From: Mobula hypostoma
Lineage: Eukaryota
NCBI RefSeq assembly: GCF_963921235.1
Contig: NC_086107.1
Coordinates: 115,756,001-115,820,000, forward strand
Direction of reading: 5' to 3'
Length of the DNA: 64,000 bases
Below are positions 9,194-63,574 of the stretch, piece by piece. The notes below the pieces were generated by a model. That model did no database searches and was not told where the DNA came from. It saw only the letters and a list, made by a program, of their open reading frames with translations. The number at the start of each line of letters is the position of its first letter. Position 1 is the stretch's first letter. Made by a program: the position numbers and the translations under genes.

Positions 9194-32377
<23,184 letters not shown>

Positions 32378-47474: not shown

Positions 47475-48080
47475 TAGAAACATAGAAAACCTACAGCACA
47501 GTAGAGACCCTTCGGCCCACAGAGCTGTGCCGAACATGTCCTTACCTAAGAACTACCTAGGCTTACCTATAGCCCTCTATTTTTCTAAGCCCTATTTACA
47601 CCACCACCACCAGCAGCCCATTCCACACACTCACCACTCTCTGCGTAAAAATTTACCCCTGACATCTCCTCTGTAGCTACTTCCAAGCACTTTAAAACTA
47701 TACCCTCTCGTTCTAGCCATTTCAGCCCTGGGAAAAAGCCTCTGACTATCCACACGATCAATGCCTCTCATTATCTTGTACACCTCTATCAGGCCACCTC
47801 TCATCATCCATCGCTCCAAGGAGAAAAGGCTGAGTTCACTCAGGCATGCTCCCGAATCCAGGCAACATCCTTGTAAGTCTCCTCTGCACCCTTTCTATGG
47901 TCTACACATCCTTTCTGTAGTGAAGCAACCAGAATTGAGCATAGTACTACAAGTGGGGTCTGACCAGGGTCTTATATAGCTGCAACATTACCTCTTGGCT
48001 CTTAAACTCAATCCCACAGAGTCAACCTGCATAACAGTTTTGAGTGTCCTATGGACTCGGATCCCGACCCCAAGATCCCT
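47475..48080 (-). mobile_element. Decayed CR1 3' fragment, subfamily of 14040-16290
   Basis: [21 protein letters not shown]; tagaaacatagaaaa tail. Confidence 0.8.
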
Positions 48081-48330
48081 CGGATCCAGGACTGGGTATC
48101 AGGCTAGGATCTCATCCAGAGGTTTATATATAGAACAGATCCCAAGGAGAGTGTAATGGTTTGGGATCTAATCCAGGGGTTTATATATAAAACAGATCCC
48201 TCAGAGAGTGTTATGGTTTGGGATCTAATCCAGGGGTTCAAGAGTTTATATATCGAATAACAGGTCCCCAGGAGTGTGTTATGGGCTGGGGTCTTGTCCA
48301 TGAATTTGGGAGTTTATGTCTAGAATAACA

Positions 48331-51300
48331 TAGAACCATAGAAAATAGGTGCAGGAGTAGGCCATTCGGCCCTTCGAGCCTACACCGCCATTTATTATGA
48401 TCATGGCTGATCATCCAACTCAGAACCCCACCCCAGCCTTCCCTCTATACCCCCTGACCCCTGTAGCCACAAGGGCCATATCTAACTCCCTCTTAAATAT
48501 AGCCAATGAACTGGCCTCAACTGTTTCCTGTGGCAGAGAATTCCACAGATTCACCACTCTCTGTGTGAAGAAGTTTTTCCTAATCTCGGTCCTAAAAGGC
48601 TTCCCCTCTATCCTCAAACTGTGACCCCTCGTTCTGGACTTCCCCAACATCGGGAACAATCTTCCTGCATCTAGCCTGTCCAATCCCTTTAGGATTTTAT
48701 ACGTTTCAATCAGATCCCCCCTCAATCTTCTAAATTCCAACGAGTACAAGCCCAGTTCATCCAGTCTTTCTTCATATGAAAGTCCTGCCATCCCAGGAAT
48801 CAATCTGGTGAACCTTCTTTGTACTCCCTCTATGGCAAGGATGTCTTTCTTCAGATTAGGGGACCAAAACTGCACACAATACTCCAGGTGTGGTCTCACC
48901 AAGGCCTTGTACAACTGCAGTAGTACCTCCCTGCTCCTGTACTCGAATGCTCTCGCTATAAATGCCAGCATACCATTCGCCTTTTTCACCGCCTGCTGTA
49001 CCTGCATGCCCACTTTCAATGACTGGTGTATAATGACACCCAGGTCTCGTTGCACCTTCCCTTTTCCTAATCGGCCACTATTCAGATAATAATCTGTTTT
49101 CCTGTTTTTGCCACCAAATTGGATAACTTCACATTTATCCACATTAAATTGCATCTGCCATGAATTTGCCCACTCACCCAACCTATCCAAGTCACCCTGC
49201 ATCCTCTTAGCATCCTCCTCACAGCCAACACTGCCACCCAGCTTCGTGTCATCCGCAAACTTGGAGATGCTGCATTTAATTCCCTCATCCAAGTTATTAA
49301 TATATATTGTAAACAACTGGGGTTCCAGCACTGAGCCTTGCAGTACCCCACTAGTCACCACCTGCCATTCTGAAAAGGTCCCGTTTATTCCCACTCTTTG
49401 CTTCCTGTCTGCTAACCAATTCTCCACCCACACCAATACCTTACCCCCAATACCGTGTGCTTTAAGTTTGCACACTAATCTCCTGTGTGGGACCTTGTCA
49501 AAAGCCTTTTGAAAATCCAAATATACCACATCCACTGGTTCTCCCCTATCCACTCTACTGGTTACATCCTCAAAAAATTCTATGAGATTCGTCAGACATG
49601 ATTTTCCTTTCACAAATCCATGCTGACTTTGTCCGATCATTTCACCGCTTTCCAAATGTGCTGTTGTCACATCCTTGATAACTGACTCCAGCAGTCTCCC
49701 CACCACCGACGTTAGGCTAACCGGTCTATAATTCCCCGGTTTCTCTCTCCCTCCTTTTTTAAAAAGTGGGGTTACATTAGCCACCCTCCAATCCTCAGGA
49801 ACTAGTCCAGAATCTAACGAGTTTTGAAAAATTATCACTAATGCATCCACTATTTCTTGGGCTACTTCCTTAAGCACTCTAGGATGCAGACCATCTGGCC
49901 CTGGGGATTTATCTGCCTTCAATCCCTTCAATTTACCTAACACCACTTCCCTACTAACATGTATTTCCCTCAGTTCCTCCATCTCACTGGACCCTCTGTC
50001 CCTTACTATTTCTGGAAGATTATTTATGTCCTCCTTAGTGAAGACAGAACCAAAGTAATTATTCAATTGGTCTGCCATGTCCTTGCTCCCCATAATCAAT
50101 TCACCTGTTTCTGTCTGCAGGGGACCTACATTTGTCTTTACCAGTCTTTTCCTTTTTACATATCTATAAAAGCTTTTACAGTCAGTTTTTATGTTCCCTG
50201 CCAGTTTTCTCTCATAATCTTTTTTCCCCTTCCTAATTAAGCCCTTTGTCCTCCTCTGCTGAACTCTGAATTTCTCCCAGTCCTCAGGTGAGCCACTTTC
50301 TCTGGCTAATTTGTATGCTGCTTTGGAATTGATACTATCCCTAATTTCTCTTGTCAGCCACGGGTGCACTACCTTCCTTGATTTATTCTTTTGCCAAACT
50401 GGGATGAACAATTGTTGCAGTTCATCCATGCAACCTTTAAATGCTTGCCATTGCATATCCACCGTCAATCGTTTAAGTGTCATTTGCCAGTCTATCTTAG
50501 CTAATTCACGTCTCATACCTTCAAAGTTACCCCTCTTTAAGTTCAGAACCTTTGTTTCTGAATTAACTATGTCACTCTCCATCTTAATGAAGAATTCCAC
50601 CATATTATGGTCACTCTTACCCAAGTGGCCTCTCACGACAAGATCGCTAATTAACCCTTCCTCATTGCTCAAAACCCAGCCCAGAATAGTCTGCTCTCTA
50701 GTTGGTTCCTCGACATGTTGGTTTAAAAAACCATCCCGCATACATTCCAAGAAATCCTCTTCCTCAGCACCTTTACCAATTTGGTTCACCCAATCTACAT
50801 GTAGGTTGAAGTCACCCATTATAACTGCTGTTCCTTTATTACACACATTTCTATTTTCCTGTTTAATACCATCTCCGACCTCACTACTGTTAGGTGGCCT
50901 GTGCACAACTCCCACCAGCGTCTTCTGCCCCTTAGTGTTACGCAGCTCTACCCATATCGATTCCACATCTTCCCGGCTTATGTCCTTCCTTTCTATTGCA
51001 TTAATCTCTTCTTTAACCAGCAACGCCACCCCACCTCCCCTTCCTTCATGTCTATCCCTCCTGAATATTGAATATCCCTGAACATTGAGCTCCCATCCCT
51101 GGTCACCCTGGAGCCATGTCTCTGTGATCCCAACTATATCATAATCATTAATAACAATCTGCACTTTCAATTCATCCACCTTATTACGAATGCTCCTTGC
51201 ATTGACACACAAAGCCTTCAGGCGCTCTTTTACAACTCTCTTAGCCCTTATACAATTATGTTGAAAAGTGGCCCTTTTTAATGCTTGCCCTGGATTTGTC

Positions 51301-52445
51301 GGCCTGCCGCTTTTAATTTTCTCCTTAGTACTTTTTGCTTCTACCCTCACTTTACACACCTCTGTCTCTCTGCACTGGTTCCCATCCCCCTGTTGTGAAC
51401 TAACCTCCTCACGCCTAGCCTCTTTAATTTGATTCCCACCCCCCAACCATTCTAGTTTAAAGTCACCTCAGTAGCCCCCGTTAATCTCCCTGCCAGGATA
51501 TTGGTCCCCCTAGGATTCAAGTGTAACCTGTCCTTTTTGTACAGGTCACACCTGCGCCAAAAGAGGTCCCAATGATCCAAAAACTTGAATCCCTGCCCCC
51601 GCCCCAATCCCTCAGCCACGCATCTATCCTCCACCTCATCGCATTCCTACTCTCACTGTCACGTGGCACAGGCAGTAATCCCGAGATTACTACCTTTGCG
51701 GTCTTTTTTCTCAACTCCCTTCCTAGCTCCCTATATTCTCCTTTCAGGACCTCATCCCTTTTCCTACCTATGTCATTGGTACCTATATGTACCACGACCT
51801 CTGGCTCCTCACCCTCCCACTTCAGGATATCTTGGACATGATCAGAAATATCCCGGACCCTGGCACCAGGGAGGCAAACTACCATCCGGGTCTCTGGACT
51901 GCGTCCACAGAATCACCTATCTGACCCCCTTACTATCGAGTCCCCTATCACAACTGCCCTCCTCTTCCTTGCCCTACCCTTCTGAGCTACAGGGCCGGAC
52001 TCTGTGCCGGAGGCACGGCCGCTGTCGCTTCCCCCAGGTAAGCTGTCCCCCCCCAACAGTGCTCAAACAGGAGTACCTATTGTCAAGAGGCACAGCCACC
52101 GGGGTACTCTGTATTACCTGACTCTTCCCCTTCCCCCTCCTAACCGTGGCCCCAGCGTGACCACCTGCCTGCAACTGCTCTCTATCAACTCCTCGCTCTC
52201 CCTGACCAGACGAAGGTCATCGAGCTGCAGCTCCAGTTCCGTAACGCGGTCCCTTAGGAGCTGCATCTCGATGCACTTGGCGCAGATGTAGATGTCCGGG
52301 AGGCTTGGAGACTCCAGGGCCTCCCACATCCGACACCGAGAACAGCAAACTGCTCTCACACTCATACTGCCCCTCTCCTCAAATAACAGAAAATGAATGC
52401 CAAACCTTCCTCGCCTCGCCCGTTTCTGCCTAAGCCCGTTGAGAC
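48331..52445 (-). mobile_element. Near full-length young CR1 LINE with uninterrupted ORF2 and broken ORF1
   Basis: ORF2 48420-51461 has an APE endonuclease (NARS, GITETW, GDFN, SDH) and RT (FADDT). ORF1 pieces have a CxxC..CxxC zinc finger, a coiled coil and an SGNH esterase (HIGTND, LHLN). Confidence 0.96.
48420..51446 (-). CDS. CR1 ORF2 endonuclease/reverse transcriptase (open frame, no initiating ATG)
   Basis: 1008-codon open frame; the track's start codon is TTG; the first ATG is at 50819. Confidence 0.9.
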   Translation of the reverse strand: MGGGNQIKEARREEVSSQQGDGNQCRETEVCKVRVEAKSTKEKIKSGRPTNPGQALKRATFQHNCIRAKRVVKERLKALCVNARSIRNKVDELKVQIVINDYDIVGITETWLQGDQGWELNVQGYSIFRRDRHEGRGGGVALLVKEEINAIERKDISREDVESIWVELRNTKGQKTLVGVVHRPPNSSEVGDGIKQENRNVCNKGTAVIMGDFNLHVDWVNQIGKGAEEEDFLECMRDGFLNQHVEEPTREQTILGWVLSNEEGLISDLVVRGHLGKSDHNMVEFFIKMESDIVNSETKVLNLKRGNFEGMRRELAKIDWQMTLKRLTVDMQWQAFKGCMDELQQLFIPVWQKNKSRKVVHPWLTREIRDSINSKAAYKLARESGSPEDWEKFRVQQRRTKGLIRKGKKDYERKLAGNIKTDCKSFYRYVKRKRLVKTNVGPLQTETGELIMGSKDMADQLNNYFGSVFTKEDINNLPEIVRDRGSSEMEELREIHVSREVVLGKLKGLKADKSPGPDGLHPRVLKEVAQEIVDALVIIFQNSLDSGLVPEDWRVANVTPLFKKGGREKPGNYRPVSLTSVVGRLLESVIKDVTTAHLESGEMIGQSQHGFVKGKSCLTNLIEFFEDVTSRVDRGEPVDVVYLDFQKAFDKVPHRRLVCKLKAHGIGGKVLVWVENWLADRKQRVGINGTFSEWQVVTSGVLQGSVLEPQLFTIYINNLDEGIKCSISKFADDTKLGGSVGCEEDAKRMQGDLDRLGEWANSWQMQFNVDKCEVIQFGGKNRKTDYYLNSGRLGKGKVQRDLGVIIHQSLKVGMQVQQAVKKANGMLAFIARAFEYRSREVLLQLYKALVRPHLEYCVQFWSPNLKKDILAIEGVQRRFTRLIPGMAGLSYEERLDELGLYSLEFRRLRGDLIETYKILKGLDRLDAGRLFPMLGKSRTRGHSLRIEGKPFRTEIRKNFFTQRVVNLWNSLPQETVEASSLAIFKRELDMALVATGVRGYRGKAGVGF

Positions 52446-53352: not shown

Positions 53353-54950
53353 CAGTGCCTATTAAAAAGTATTCAGCCCCCCCGACCTTGGAAGTGTTTT
53401 ACAATATTGAATCACAGTGGATTTAATTTGGCTTTTTTTAATACTGGTCAACAGAAAAAGACTTTCGTGTTGAAGTCAAAACATCTCTACAAATTGATTT
53501 AAATTAATTACAAATATAAACAAACTAATTGCATAAGTATTCACCCCCTTTAATATAACACCAAATGTTCGCTGGTGCAGCCAATTGATTTTGGAAGTCA
53601 CATAATTAGTTAAATGCAGATCACCATGTGCAGTCAAGGTATTTCAATTGATTATAATAGAATCACAACAGTATCTGGAAGGTCCAACTGTTGGTGAGTC
53701 AGTATCCTGGCAAAAAATACACCACAAAGACAAAAGAACACTCCAAGCAACTCTGAAAAAGTTAGAGAAAAGCACAAGTCAAGAGATGGATGCAAGGAAA
53801 TTTCCAAGTCACTGAATATCCCTTGGAATACAATTAAGTCAATCACCTAAGAAATTAAAAGAATATGGCACAGCTGTAAATCTGCCTGGAATGGTCCATC
53901 CTCAAAGACTGAGTGACTGTGCAAGATGGGGACTGGTGAGGGAGGCCACCAAGAGACCTATGACAATTCTGGAGGAGTTACAAGCTTCAGTGGCTGAGAT
54001 GGGAGAGACTGCGCATACAACAACTGTTGCCCGGGTGCTTCACCAGTCGCAGCTTTATGGGAGAGTGGCAAAGAGAAGCCACTGTTTTAAAAACTCACAT
54101 GAAATCTCAGCTAGAGTTTGCCAGAAGGCATGTGGGAGACTCTGAAGTCAGCTGGAAGAAGGTTCTATGGTCTGATGAAACCAAAATTGAGCTAGTTGGC
54201 CATCAGACTAAACGTTATGTTTGGCCAAACACCACACATCATCAAAAACACACCACACCATCCCTACTGTGAAGCATGGTGGTGGCTGCATCACACTGTG
54301 GGGATGCTTCACTCCAGCAGTCCCTGGAAGGCTTGTGAATGTAGAGAGTAAAATGAATGTAGCAAAATACAGGGAAAACCTGATGCAGTCTGCAAGAGAA
54401 CTGCAACTTGGGAGAAGATTTGTTTTCCAGCAAGACAATGACCCCAAGCATAAAGCCAAAGCTACACAGGAATGGCTTAAAAACAACAAAGTTAATGTCC
54501 TGGAGTGGCCAGGTCAGAGACAAAACCTCAATCCAATTGAGAATTTGTGGCTGGACTTGAAAAGCGCTGTTCACTCACAATCACTGTGCAATCTGACAGA
54601 GTTTTTGAGCAGTTTTGTAAAGAAAAATGGGGGGAAATTGCAGTGTCCAGATATGCAAAGCTGATAGAGACCTATCCACACAGACTCAAGGATGTAATTG
54701 CTGCCAAAGGTGCATCTACTAAATACTGTCTTGAAAGGGGTGAATAATTATGCAAACAATTAATTTTGTGTTTAATAATTGTAATAAATTTTAGACAAAT
54801 TTAGAGAAATTTGTTTTTACTTTGACACGAGTAGTCTTTTCTGTTGATCAGTGTCAAAAAAGCTGAATTATATCTACTGTGATTCAATGTTGTAAAACAA
54901 TAAGACGTAAGAATTTCCTGGGTTGGACAGGGGTGAATATATATGCTCTG
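53353..54950 (+). mobile_element. Full-length decayed Tc1-family DNA transposon with long IR/DR-type termini
   Basis: TA|CAGTG start and CTG|TA end; ~200-bp inverted repeats with repeated attcacccc/ggggtgaat motifs; transposase remnants WSDETK, VKHGGG, FQQDNDPKH and LNPIENLW. Confidence 0.9.

Positions 54951-57456: not shown

Positions 57457-63574
<6,118 letters not shown>

Follow-up and report, generated by a model that had tools for sequence, protein, structure and literature searches.

A coronavirus-type slippery heptamer abutting the ORF1 stop codon points to -1 ribosomal frameshifting in CR1 retrotransposons

The 64,000-nucleotide stretch of the Mobula hypostoma genome analysed here (NCBI RefSeq assembly GCF_963921235.1, contig NC_086107.1, positions 115,756,001 to 115,820,000 of the forward strand; referred to below as the window, with coordinates counted from its first letter) carries on its minus strand a copy of a CR1-clade long interspersed element (LINE). 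The first open reading frame (ORF1) of this element ends in the heptanucleotide T_TTA_AAC, which is immediately followed by a stop codon, and the second one (ORF2), encoding endonuclease and reverse transcriptase, is open in the -1 frame from this site onwards. All lineages sampled, from rays to the bird type, keep a ten-letter signal of this kind ([T/G]TTAAAC-TAR), which should send a fixed fraction of ribosomes into ORF2. We propose that CR1-clade LINEs with an esterase-type ORF1 probably express ORF2 by -1 programmed ribosomal frameshifting. Judged by these sequences, the finding is most likely a -1 frameshift at a coronavirus-type heptamer in a LINE, accompanied by an abutting stop codon and a G-rich element that forms no hairpin. 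How the second ORF of LINEs is translated is a long-standing question, and for CR1 it can now be put as a simple and testable claim.

Structure of the ORF1/ORF2 junction

Positions 51469-51452 of the minus strand read GAG GTG ACT TTA AAC TAG, and the -1 frame at the junction reads TTT AAA CTA GAA TGG TTG GGG. A first-pass annotation of this DNA had placed T-TTA-AAC at 51461-51455, in the phase for -1 slippage directly before the stop, and had identified the -1 frame with an ORF2 of more than 1000 codons. In that annotation, a TGA two codons before the heptamer closes the frame on the upstream side, and the first in-frame ATG is at 50819, inside the endonuclease. Reading of the minus strand bears out each of these points (the stop-to-stop frame, 48420..51467, has 1015 codons). 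In the window family, 214 codons pass without an in-frame ATG. The ATG just after the ORF1 stop (51450-51448) is indeed in the third frame, as annotated, and this frame closes after 8 codons. The position given for the end of ORF1 was right, but it had escaped notice that ORF1 of the window copy is not intact, as it carries three frame-changing indels (see below). Two instances of TTTAAACTAR are present in the 64 kb of the window, where 0.15 are expected (3 of 100 shuffles reach two), and both are ORF1/ORF2 junctions of the CR1 family studied here.

Conservation of the junction

The source genome (3.48 Gb) yielded at least 790 candidate matches to the junction, 40 of which were scored (97-100% identical); the counts for the family come from 30 fetched loci. 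All 30 possess TTTAAAC, as well as the TGA two codons upstream of it, and in 29 the heptamer is directly followed by TAG. An ATG within the first 100 codons of the ORF2 frame is found in none of them (0/30), and five loci have an intact ORF1 (311-316 amino acids) that ends at the junction TAG. The junction layout is a property of the family, not a mutation private to the window copy. Furthermore, contigs of four organisms over the junction show no listed substitution or indel at 51452-51470 (share of at least 10%), so nothing suggests a class of copies with ORF1 and ORF2 in one frame. These contigs also bear on the idea that the frame is changed in the transcript, i.e., by RNA polymerase slippage or editing at the junction in a fraction of the RNAs. 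We found no point that supports it, TTTAAAC lacks the sort of long homopolymer run on which transcriptional slippage depends, and no indel is seen at the junction in the contigs of the four runs, although none of these is confirmed RNA and this argument is correspondingly weak; a transcript-level change is barely plausible.

Because the copies of the family are 98% identical, their agreement is uninformative, and diverged lineages were therefore compared (ORF1 42-60% identical for those of the same genome). In an old family with 42% identity in ORF1, GCT TTA AAC TAA is preserved in 14 of 30 decayed copies, the remaining ones having single-base changes or deletions at the junction. At least four further lineages of this genome have NNT TTA AAC TAR in 17 of 18 junction windows (640 bases each). 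Overall, no fewer than six diverged lineages of the genome, besides the window family, have T_TTA_AAC with TAR right behind it at the ORF1 end. All seven metagenome contigs that reach the end of ORF1 read [T/G]TTAAAC TAG; six of them possess an amniote-type ORF1 tail (...LAGLIERALN), and the seventh, L080, is a distant relative with GTTAAAC TAG. A TAR codon thus stands directly after the heptamer in 29/30 loci of the family, 14/30 of the old family, 17/18 diverged windows and 7/7 metagenome contigs. No relatives were found in a viral contig collection, nor in two single-protein scans of a genome contig collection.

Fifteen lineage representatives were taken from the source genome and from unrelated metagenome contigs with amniote-type CR1. 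In line with the check proposed in the first-pass annotation, that TTTAAAC-stop and its phase be compared across CR1 families, the heptamer and the abutting stop are present in the same phase in all 15, position 1 being T in 14 and G in one. Positions 1-9 (T TTA AAC TA) are identical in 14-15 of the 15 representatives, compared to 6-13 of 15 in the flanking columns. The penultimate Leu is encoded by TTA and the final Asn by AAC in 15/15 cases each, and the codon before them ends in U in 14/15, whereas a conserved Leu 20 codons upstream is encoded by five different codons. In these ORF1s, TTA accounts for 14-15% of Leu codons, AAC for 20-30% of Asn codons, and T for 22% of third positions. The heptamer is invariant at synonymous sites while its conserved neighbours vary; therefore, the constraint is on the nucleotides, in the phase of tandem slippage. 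Two features of -1 frameshift sites, a slippery heptamer in the phase of the upstream ORF and conservation at synonymous sites, are found at this junction.

C-termini of ORF1 proteins

A search with the intact family ORF1 as query revealed 103 ORF1 relatives, among them proteins of rays and sharks (Mobula, Leucoraja, Hypanus, Hemitrygon, Pristiophorus, Mustelus, Pristis, Stegostoma, Narcine) and of frogs (Xenopus, Leptobrachium). Fifty of the 59 relatives that reach the last conserved helix have a C-terminal Leu-Asn (LN), and the residues preceding it vary. In 48 of these 50 proteins, LN is preceded by a residue for which a U-ending codon exists; K, E, Q, M and W, for which there is none, account for 19.7% of the background. 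Two of the most distant clusters (27-29% identity), which include hoatzin and turkey proteins, end with ...ALN and ...CLN. Note that for the named taxa the evidence for LN is at the level of protein sequence. In most lineages, the motif of the last conserved helix (..ILAG..) and the stop are a constant 11 residues apart, so the C-terminus is under constraint as protein, too.

This fixed distance would be expected as well if the block of TTTAAAC, TAR and the G-rich tract described below were kept for a non-translational reason (e.g., RNA binding or packaging by the ORF1 protein (ORF1p), or an internal DNA regulatory element), or if Leu-Asn were needed by the esterase fold, with ORF2 being expressed by an unrelated route; it also speaks for such a constraint that the G-rich tract is an element without a demonstrated role in frameshifting. 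A requirement of the protein, however, leaves synonymous sites free, yet TTA and AAC are used in 15/15 representatives and a U-ending codon before them in 14/15. Moreover, the block lies exactly where the -1 frame opens, and it has the phase of tandem slippage in every lineage. We give this explanation only a slim chance.

Several ORF1 relatives are of interest in themselves. P0093 and P0102 possess an L2-like 'DGLHPS' motif and no LN end; going by these proteins, the slip site may be specific for CR1 and absent from L2. In an annotated ray protein, P0037, the ORF1 esterase with its ...LN is followed without a break by the start of the endonuclease (..YLNARSVRNK..); this protein is either an indel-fused copy or a gene model that bridges the frames. 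CR1 ORF1 or chimeras with it are named in public records 'SGNH/GDSL hydrolase [Pseudomonas aeruginosa]', '40S ribosomal protein S24 isoform X2', 'transmembrane protein 204 isoform' or 'ABHD14A-like' (among P0019, P0026, P0060/P0062 and P0086); these misnamed entries probably reflect contamination, or else gene models that incorporated a CR1 copy.

The -1 frame and its start codons

From the slip site to the endonuclease motif (39-86 codons), no stop interrupts the -1 frame in 14/14 copies from at least seven lineages, compared to 1-7 and 3-12 stops in the other two frames. Upstream, it is closed by a stop 1-5 codons before the heptamer in most lineages and is open for at least 37 codons in three of them. 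The window family and two other lineages have no in-frame ATG between the slip site and the endonuclease; elsewhere, in-frame ATGs are at codons 3, 4, 19, 22, 24, 28, 38 or 41. In lineage D (L074, L075, L076) the junction reads TTTAAAC TAA TG, with CTA ATG in the ORF2 frame, and thus combines the slip site with a UAAUG stop/start overlap. Two of the five amniote-type contigs have an ATG two codons past the stop, where the others have TCG, TGG or GTG, and no conserved near-cognate codon after the stop was found among the lineages compared. As in known -1 frameshift systems, the downstream ORF is open from the putative shift site and its own start is not conserved.

A G-rich tract downstream of the heptamer

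In 14 of the 15 representatives, a run of at least four G (usually 5-6) begins 9-10 nt past the heptamer (7 nt in L080). A second G run follows 1-3 bases later in 13 of 15, giving tracts such as GGGGGATGGG, GGGGGGTGGG and GGGGGAAGGGG. In the window copy, the G6 run at 51444-51439 is followed by T and then by GGG (51437-35). The first-pass annotation had the tract begin ~6 nt after the heptamer, which is too close: the G6 run starts at 10 nt, and there is just GG at +7/+8. The codon phase of the tract varies (CAG GGG GAY GGG encodes QGDG, AGG GGG GTG GGT encodes RGVG). As the spacing is kept and the codon phase is not, the tract is not conserved as a peptide, which points to a putative RNA-level element.

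The window family contains a further motif of this type, CAGGGGGATGGGAAC. It starts 69 nt from the heptamer start in this family and 15 nt from it in lineage D (L075), and the downstream protein sequences align thereafter. Compared to the sister lineage, the region 51378-51445 of the minus strand includes a 54-nt insertion between the slip site and the CAGGGGGATGGGAAC block. At its start, the insert has a G-tract of its own, spaced as usual, so that the window family has two copies of the motif, as if the putative stimulator region had been duplicated. The second family copy in the window (61700-62478, minus strand) has one G-to-T change in its G-tract (tttggggg).

G4Hunter scores at the tract are 0.72-1.64, compared to 0.17-0.90 upstream of it. 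If G-quadruplexes are allowed in folding, a two-tier form at the tract is part of the minimum-free-energy (MFE) structure in 5 of 14 lineages. In the MFE folds the G-tract is unpaired, the region being purine-rich and C-poor. Past the G-tract, the sequences of the lineages can no longer be aligned with one another.

Points against frameshifting, and reinitiation as the alternative

Several observations weigh against the proposed frameshifting. The canonical stable stem-loop or pseudoknot 5-9 nt downstream of the heptamer was not found; the G-rich tract 9-10 nt downstream stands in its place, and a conventional structured stimulator finds no support. Indeed, single-sequence MFE folding, which does not predict pseudoknots explicitly, gave no stable hairpin in 14 lineages (MFE z from -0.89 to +1.60 relative to dinucleotide shuffles). 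A duplex scan of the whole element for a long-range partner of the G-tract had its best hit at -23.1 kcal/mol (null, -20.6 +/- 2.2) and did not exceed the level of shuffled probes, and a search of Rfam returned only a sub-threshold chance match to a long non-coding RNA model. Among the ORF1 relatives reaching the C-terminus, 9 of 59 do not have LN; the groups ending in ...KEFFR, ...VQGN and ...SRALR (22 members) may, as judged from their protein ends, represent lineages without the slip site. A search of the source genome with the non-LN relatives P0084 and P0092 gave only known CR1 lineages (40-45% identity), and the ...SRALR cluster matched only LN-type loci there (32-42% identity). For the linker of 57 codons, comparison of the window family with lineage D gave Ka/Ks ratios of 0.99-3.68, based on 15-20 differences with controls that are equally noisy, so that this comparison does not show the linker to be translated. 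Furthermore, the lineages are related by descent, so that the 15 representatives are not independent trials, and horizontal transfer has been reported in the CR1 group in the available text of a recent survey (PMC13343379). Finally, in some lineages an ATG of the ORF2 frame lies 3-4 codons past the slip site, where reinitiation could take place, and ORF2 translation of L1 has been reported to be AUG-independent (PMC5009743, PMC3708506, each in the text available).

The last two points lead to the main alternative, that is, termination-reinitiation or L1-like AUG-independent initiation. Here, the ribosome would restart near TAR in the -1 frame, at AUG where there is one and otherwise at a non-AUG codon, with the G-rich tract holding the post-termination ribosome, and would yield ORF2p as a protein of its own. 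Never more than 3 nt separate the ORF1 stop from the start of the open -1 frame, which fits such a restart, and the UAAUG of lineage D is an overlap of the SART1 type. A restart AUG at or near the upstream stop is thus present in lineage D and in 2/5 amniote-type contigs, and absent from the window family. A conserved G-rich tract that might tether the 40S subunit, by binding to ribosomal RNA or to a factor, is present downstream; the failure to predict a classical frameshift-stimulating structure fits reinitiation too. What reinitiation leaves unexplained is the in-phase T_TTA_AAC, invariant at synonymous sites in 15/15 lineages. In addition, three lineages lack any ATG before the endonuclease, its position varies in the others, and the place of the amniote-type ATG is taken by TCG, TGG or GTG without a conserved near-cognate codon. 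We therefore regard reinitiation as rather unlikely and -1 frameshifting as the probable route, although in lineage D both routes might operate.

The window element and its neighbours

The features discussed are listed in Table 1. The 5' limit of the element (52443) is the position where homology to six full-length copies of the family begins, and its 3' limit was set at ~48327, since matching ends at query base 192-205 in ~39 of 40 scored genome copies. The intact family ORF1 matches the window copy in two frames (tblastn, 52365..51580 and 51604..51455). Compared to an intact family member, the window ORF1 has a 22-nt deletion at ~52148, a 1-nt insertion at ~52054 and a 1-nt deletion at ~51600; its esterase part is spread over other frames, and the frame that reaches TAG is open for the last 62 codons only. 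The ORF1 protein matches the SGNH/GDSL esterase family PF13472 (E=1.2e-16), and its closest solved structure is the esterase of ZfL2-1 ORF1 (PDB 4c1b, E=8.7e-27). The 1015-residue ORF2 frame contains Exo_endo_phos (PF03372, residues 102-225, E=2e-09), Exo_endo_phos_2 (PF14529, 188-290, E=1e-05) and RVT_1 (PF00078, 573-783, E=1.6e-28).

Table 1. Features of the window discussed in the text (strand and basis of assignment as given)
Feature	Position	Strand	Basis or remark
CR1-clade LINE copy, young family, ~4.1 kb	48327..52443	-	homology limits at both ends and ORF1/ORF2 domains
ORF1 (Cys-rich N-terminus, coiled-coil-like region, SGNH esterase), broken in the window copy	51452..52365	-	tblastn with intact family ORF1
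TGA at the upstream end of the ORF2 (-1) frame, two codons before the heptamer	51468..51470	-	window sequence
Slippery heptamer T_TTA_AAC in X_XXY_YYZ phase of ORF1 (TTA and AAC are ORF1 codons)	51455..51461	-	window sequence
ORF1 stop TAG, abutting the heptamer	51452..51454	-	window sequence
ORF2 (AP-endonuclease and reverse transcriptase), -1 frame from slip site, 1013 codons and stop	48420..51461	-	ORF and Pfam
Proximal G-rich tract GGGGGGTGGG, candidate stimulator, 10 nt past the heptamer	51435..51444	-	window sequence
Second copy of the G-motif, CAGGGGGATGGGAAC	51378..51392	-	54 nt further downstream than in sister lineage
First in-frame ORF2 ATG, inside the endonuclease domain	50817..50819	-	codon index 216 of the stop-to-stop frame
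Identical TTTAAAC-TAG junction, in the second family copy (5'-truncated)	62056..62065	-	sequence match

An apurinic/apyrimidinic (AP) endonuclease together with reverse transcriptase in ORF2 and an ORF1 of the esterase (SGNH) type are hallmarks of CR1-clade LINEs, and both are present here. The assignment to CR1 rather than L2 is based on the first-pass annotation, on the ORF1 relatives, which include bird CR1-type proteins, and on C-terminal motifs of ORF2 that we take to be of CR1 type. Note that the esterase type is the sole ORF1 type reported for both vertebrate CR1 and L2 in the available text of the survey (PMC13343379).

Besides the studied element, the window carries several related sequences. 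In the second copy of the family, ORF1 begins at residue 172, and residues 172-311 match 62478..62059 with 93% identity. An older, decayed CR1 copy of another lineage (25343-28999, plus strand; ORF1 51% identical) was tried as a source of a further junction and set aside, as its ORF1/ORF2 junction, including the slip site, has been lost to a deletion. Directly downstream of the studied element, there is a 3'-terminal piece of yet another CR1 lineage (47631-47894, minus strand). Overlapping open frames at 53816-54664 (plus strand) presumably represent a decayed transposase of the Tc1/mariner type (...DNDPKHKAK...NLNPIENLW...).

Proposed mechanism and significance

The comparative data thus support the proposal of the first-pass annotation that a -1 frameshift at U_UUA_AAC fuses ORF1 to an AUG-less ORF2; the slip itself is what we infer from them. 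On U_UUA_AAC, the P site of the ribosome would hold tRNA-Leu paired with UUA, and the A site would hold tRNA-Asn paired with AAC. The two tRNAs would slip one base back onto UUU_AAA, and reading would resume with CUA (Leu), across the former stop and into ORF2. The product, made in a minority of rounds, would be an ORF1-ORF2 fusion with the junction ...TLN/LEW...; ribosomes that do not slip would terminate at the very next codon and release ORF1p, this being the default outcome. Stimulation would probably come from the abutting stop and from the conserved G-rich tract that begins 9-10 nt downstream; the latter could work by forming a G-quadruplex or by binding a factor.

If this is correct, CR1 synthesizes its ORF2p fused to ORF1p, and this would account for recruitment of the enzyme to RNA coated with ORF1p; the ratio of ORF1 to ORF2 products is then set by the efficiency of frameshifting. 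Annotation pipelines that look for a start codon of ORF2 would model thousands of CR1 copies incorrectly in each genome, and the conserved G-tract would be a candidate for a non-hairpin stimulator of eukaryotic -1 frameshifting. A bolder scenario, in our estimate an unlikely one, is that CR1, which dominates among the retrotransposons of many vertebrates, has been making a Gag-Pol-like fusion since before the ray-bird split by means of a new cassette, consisting of U_UUA_AAC, the abutting stop and a linear, hairpin-free G-rich element that acts as a G-quadruplex or through a bound protein, possibly ORF1p in cis. Should ORF1p act in this way on the G-tract, its amount would determine how fast ORF2 is synthesized and would couple the enzyme to the RNA that encodes it.

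A full-text literature search found no statement of frameshifting in CR1; the earliest descriptions of full-length CR1 from chicken and turtle were outside this search. Of the non-LTR (long terminal repeat) elements, only HeT-A, TART and L1 are mentioned in the available part of the 2016 recoding review (PMC5009743). Odon et al. (2013) termed the mechanism of ORF2 translation unclear and cited reinitiation in SART1 (PMC3708506, available text). The words frameshift, overlap, start codon and stop codon are all absent from the 2026 survey of the CR1 group (PMC13343379), and a 2014 survey of ORF1 is silent on translation of ORF2 by frameshifting. If the older literature already states that CR1 uses frameshifting, the value of the present work lies in the comparative evidence.

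Comparison with known systems

The -1 site between ORF1a and ORF1b of coronaviruses and arteriviruses is U_UUA_AAC (G_UUA_AAC in equine arteritis virus), with a pseudoknot 5-7 nt downstream. CR1 elements share with them the identical heptamer, including the G_TTA_AAC variant (L080), and the presumed outcome, i.e., tandem slippage giving a longer, polymerase-containing fusion. In contrast to these viruses, CR1 has no predicted stable structure, its 0-frame stop abuts the heptamer, and the G-tract is located 9-10 nt downstream. Shift sites that abut the 0-frame stop are known from luteoviruses and dianthoviruses. The stop directly after the shift site is common to them and to CR1, whereas the CR1 element is G-rich and is not a member of those viral systems. 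The non-LTR elements TRE5-A and TRE3-A of Dictyostelium, which are of the apurinic-endonuclease type, belong to a different clade and host, and nothing ties them to the CR1 motif.

In animal LTR elements, pol is in the -1 frame in 28 of the 51 surveyed according to the available text of the recoding review (PMC5009743). Gag-Pol of retroviruses and LTR elements resembles the CR1 arrangement in that an upstream structural or accessory ORF is followed, at a heptanucleotide, by a reverse transcriptase ORF in the -1 frame. However, CR1 is a non-LTR element without a protease that could split the fusion, and its ORF1p is a zinc-finger/coiled-coil/esterase protein and not Gag.

Among LINEs, SART1 of the silkworm uses termination-reinitiation at UAAUG, for which a downstream RNA element is needed, as described in the available text of PMC3708506. 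Like CR1, SART1 and human L1 have a bicistronic RNA in which the ORF1 stop and the ORF2 start are adjacent, and one ray lineage even possesses UAAUG. However, they have no conserved slippery heptamer at this place, and the window family and two further CR1 lineages lack an AUG before the endonuclease.

A parallel for the putative stimulator comes from another group of shift sites. As described in the available text of the review by Atkins et al. (2016, PMC5009743), some 3' stimulators, a minority, are set further downstream of the shift site (12-15 nt) and can be 'linear' RNA that works with trans-acting factors. The CR1 G-tract would fit this linear, protein-dependent class, with which it shares a longer-than-usual spacer to an element that is not a hairpin.

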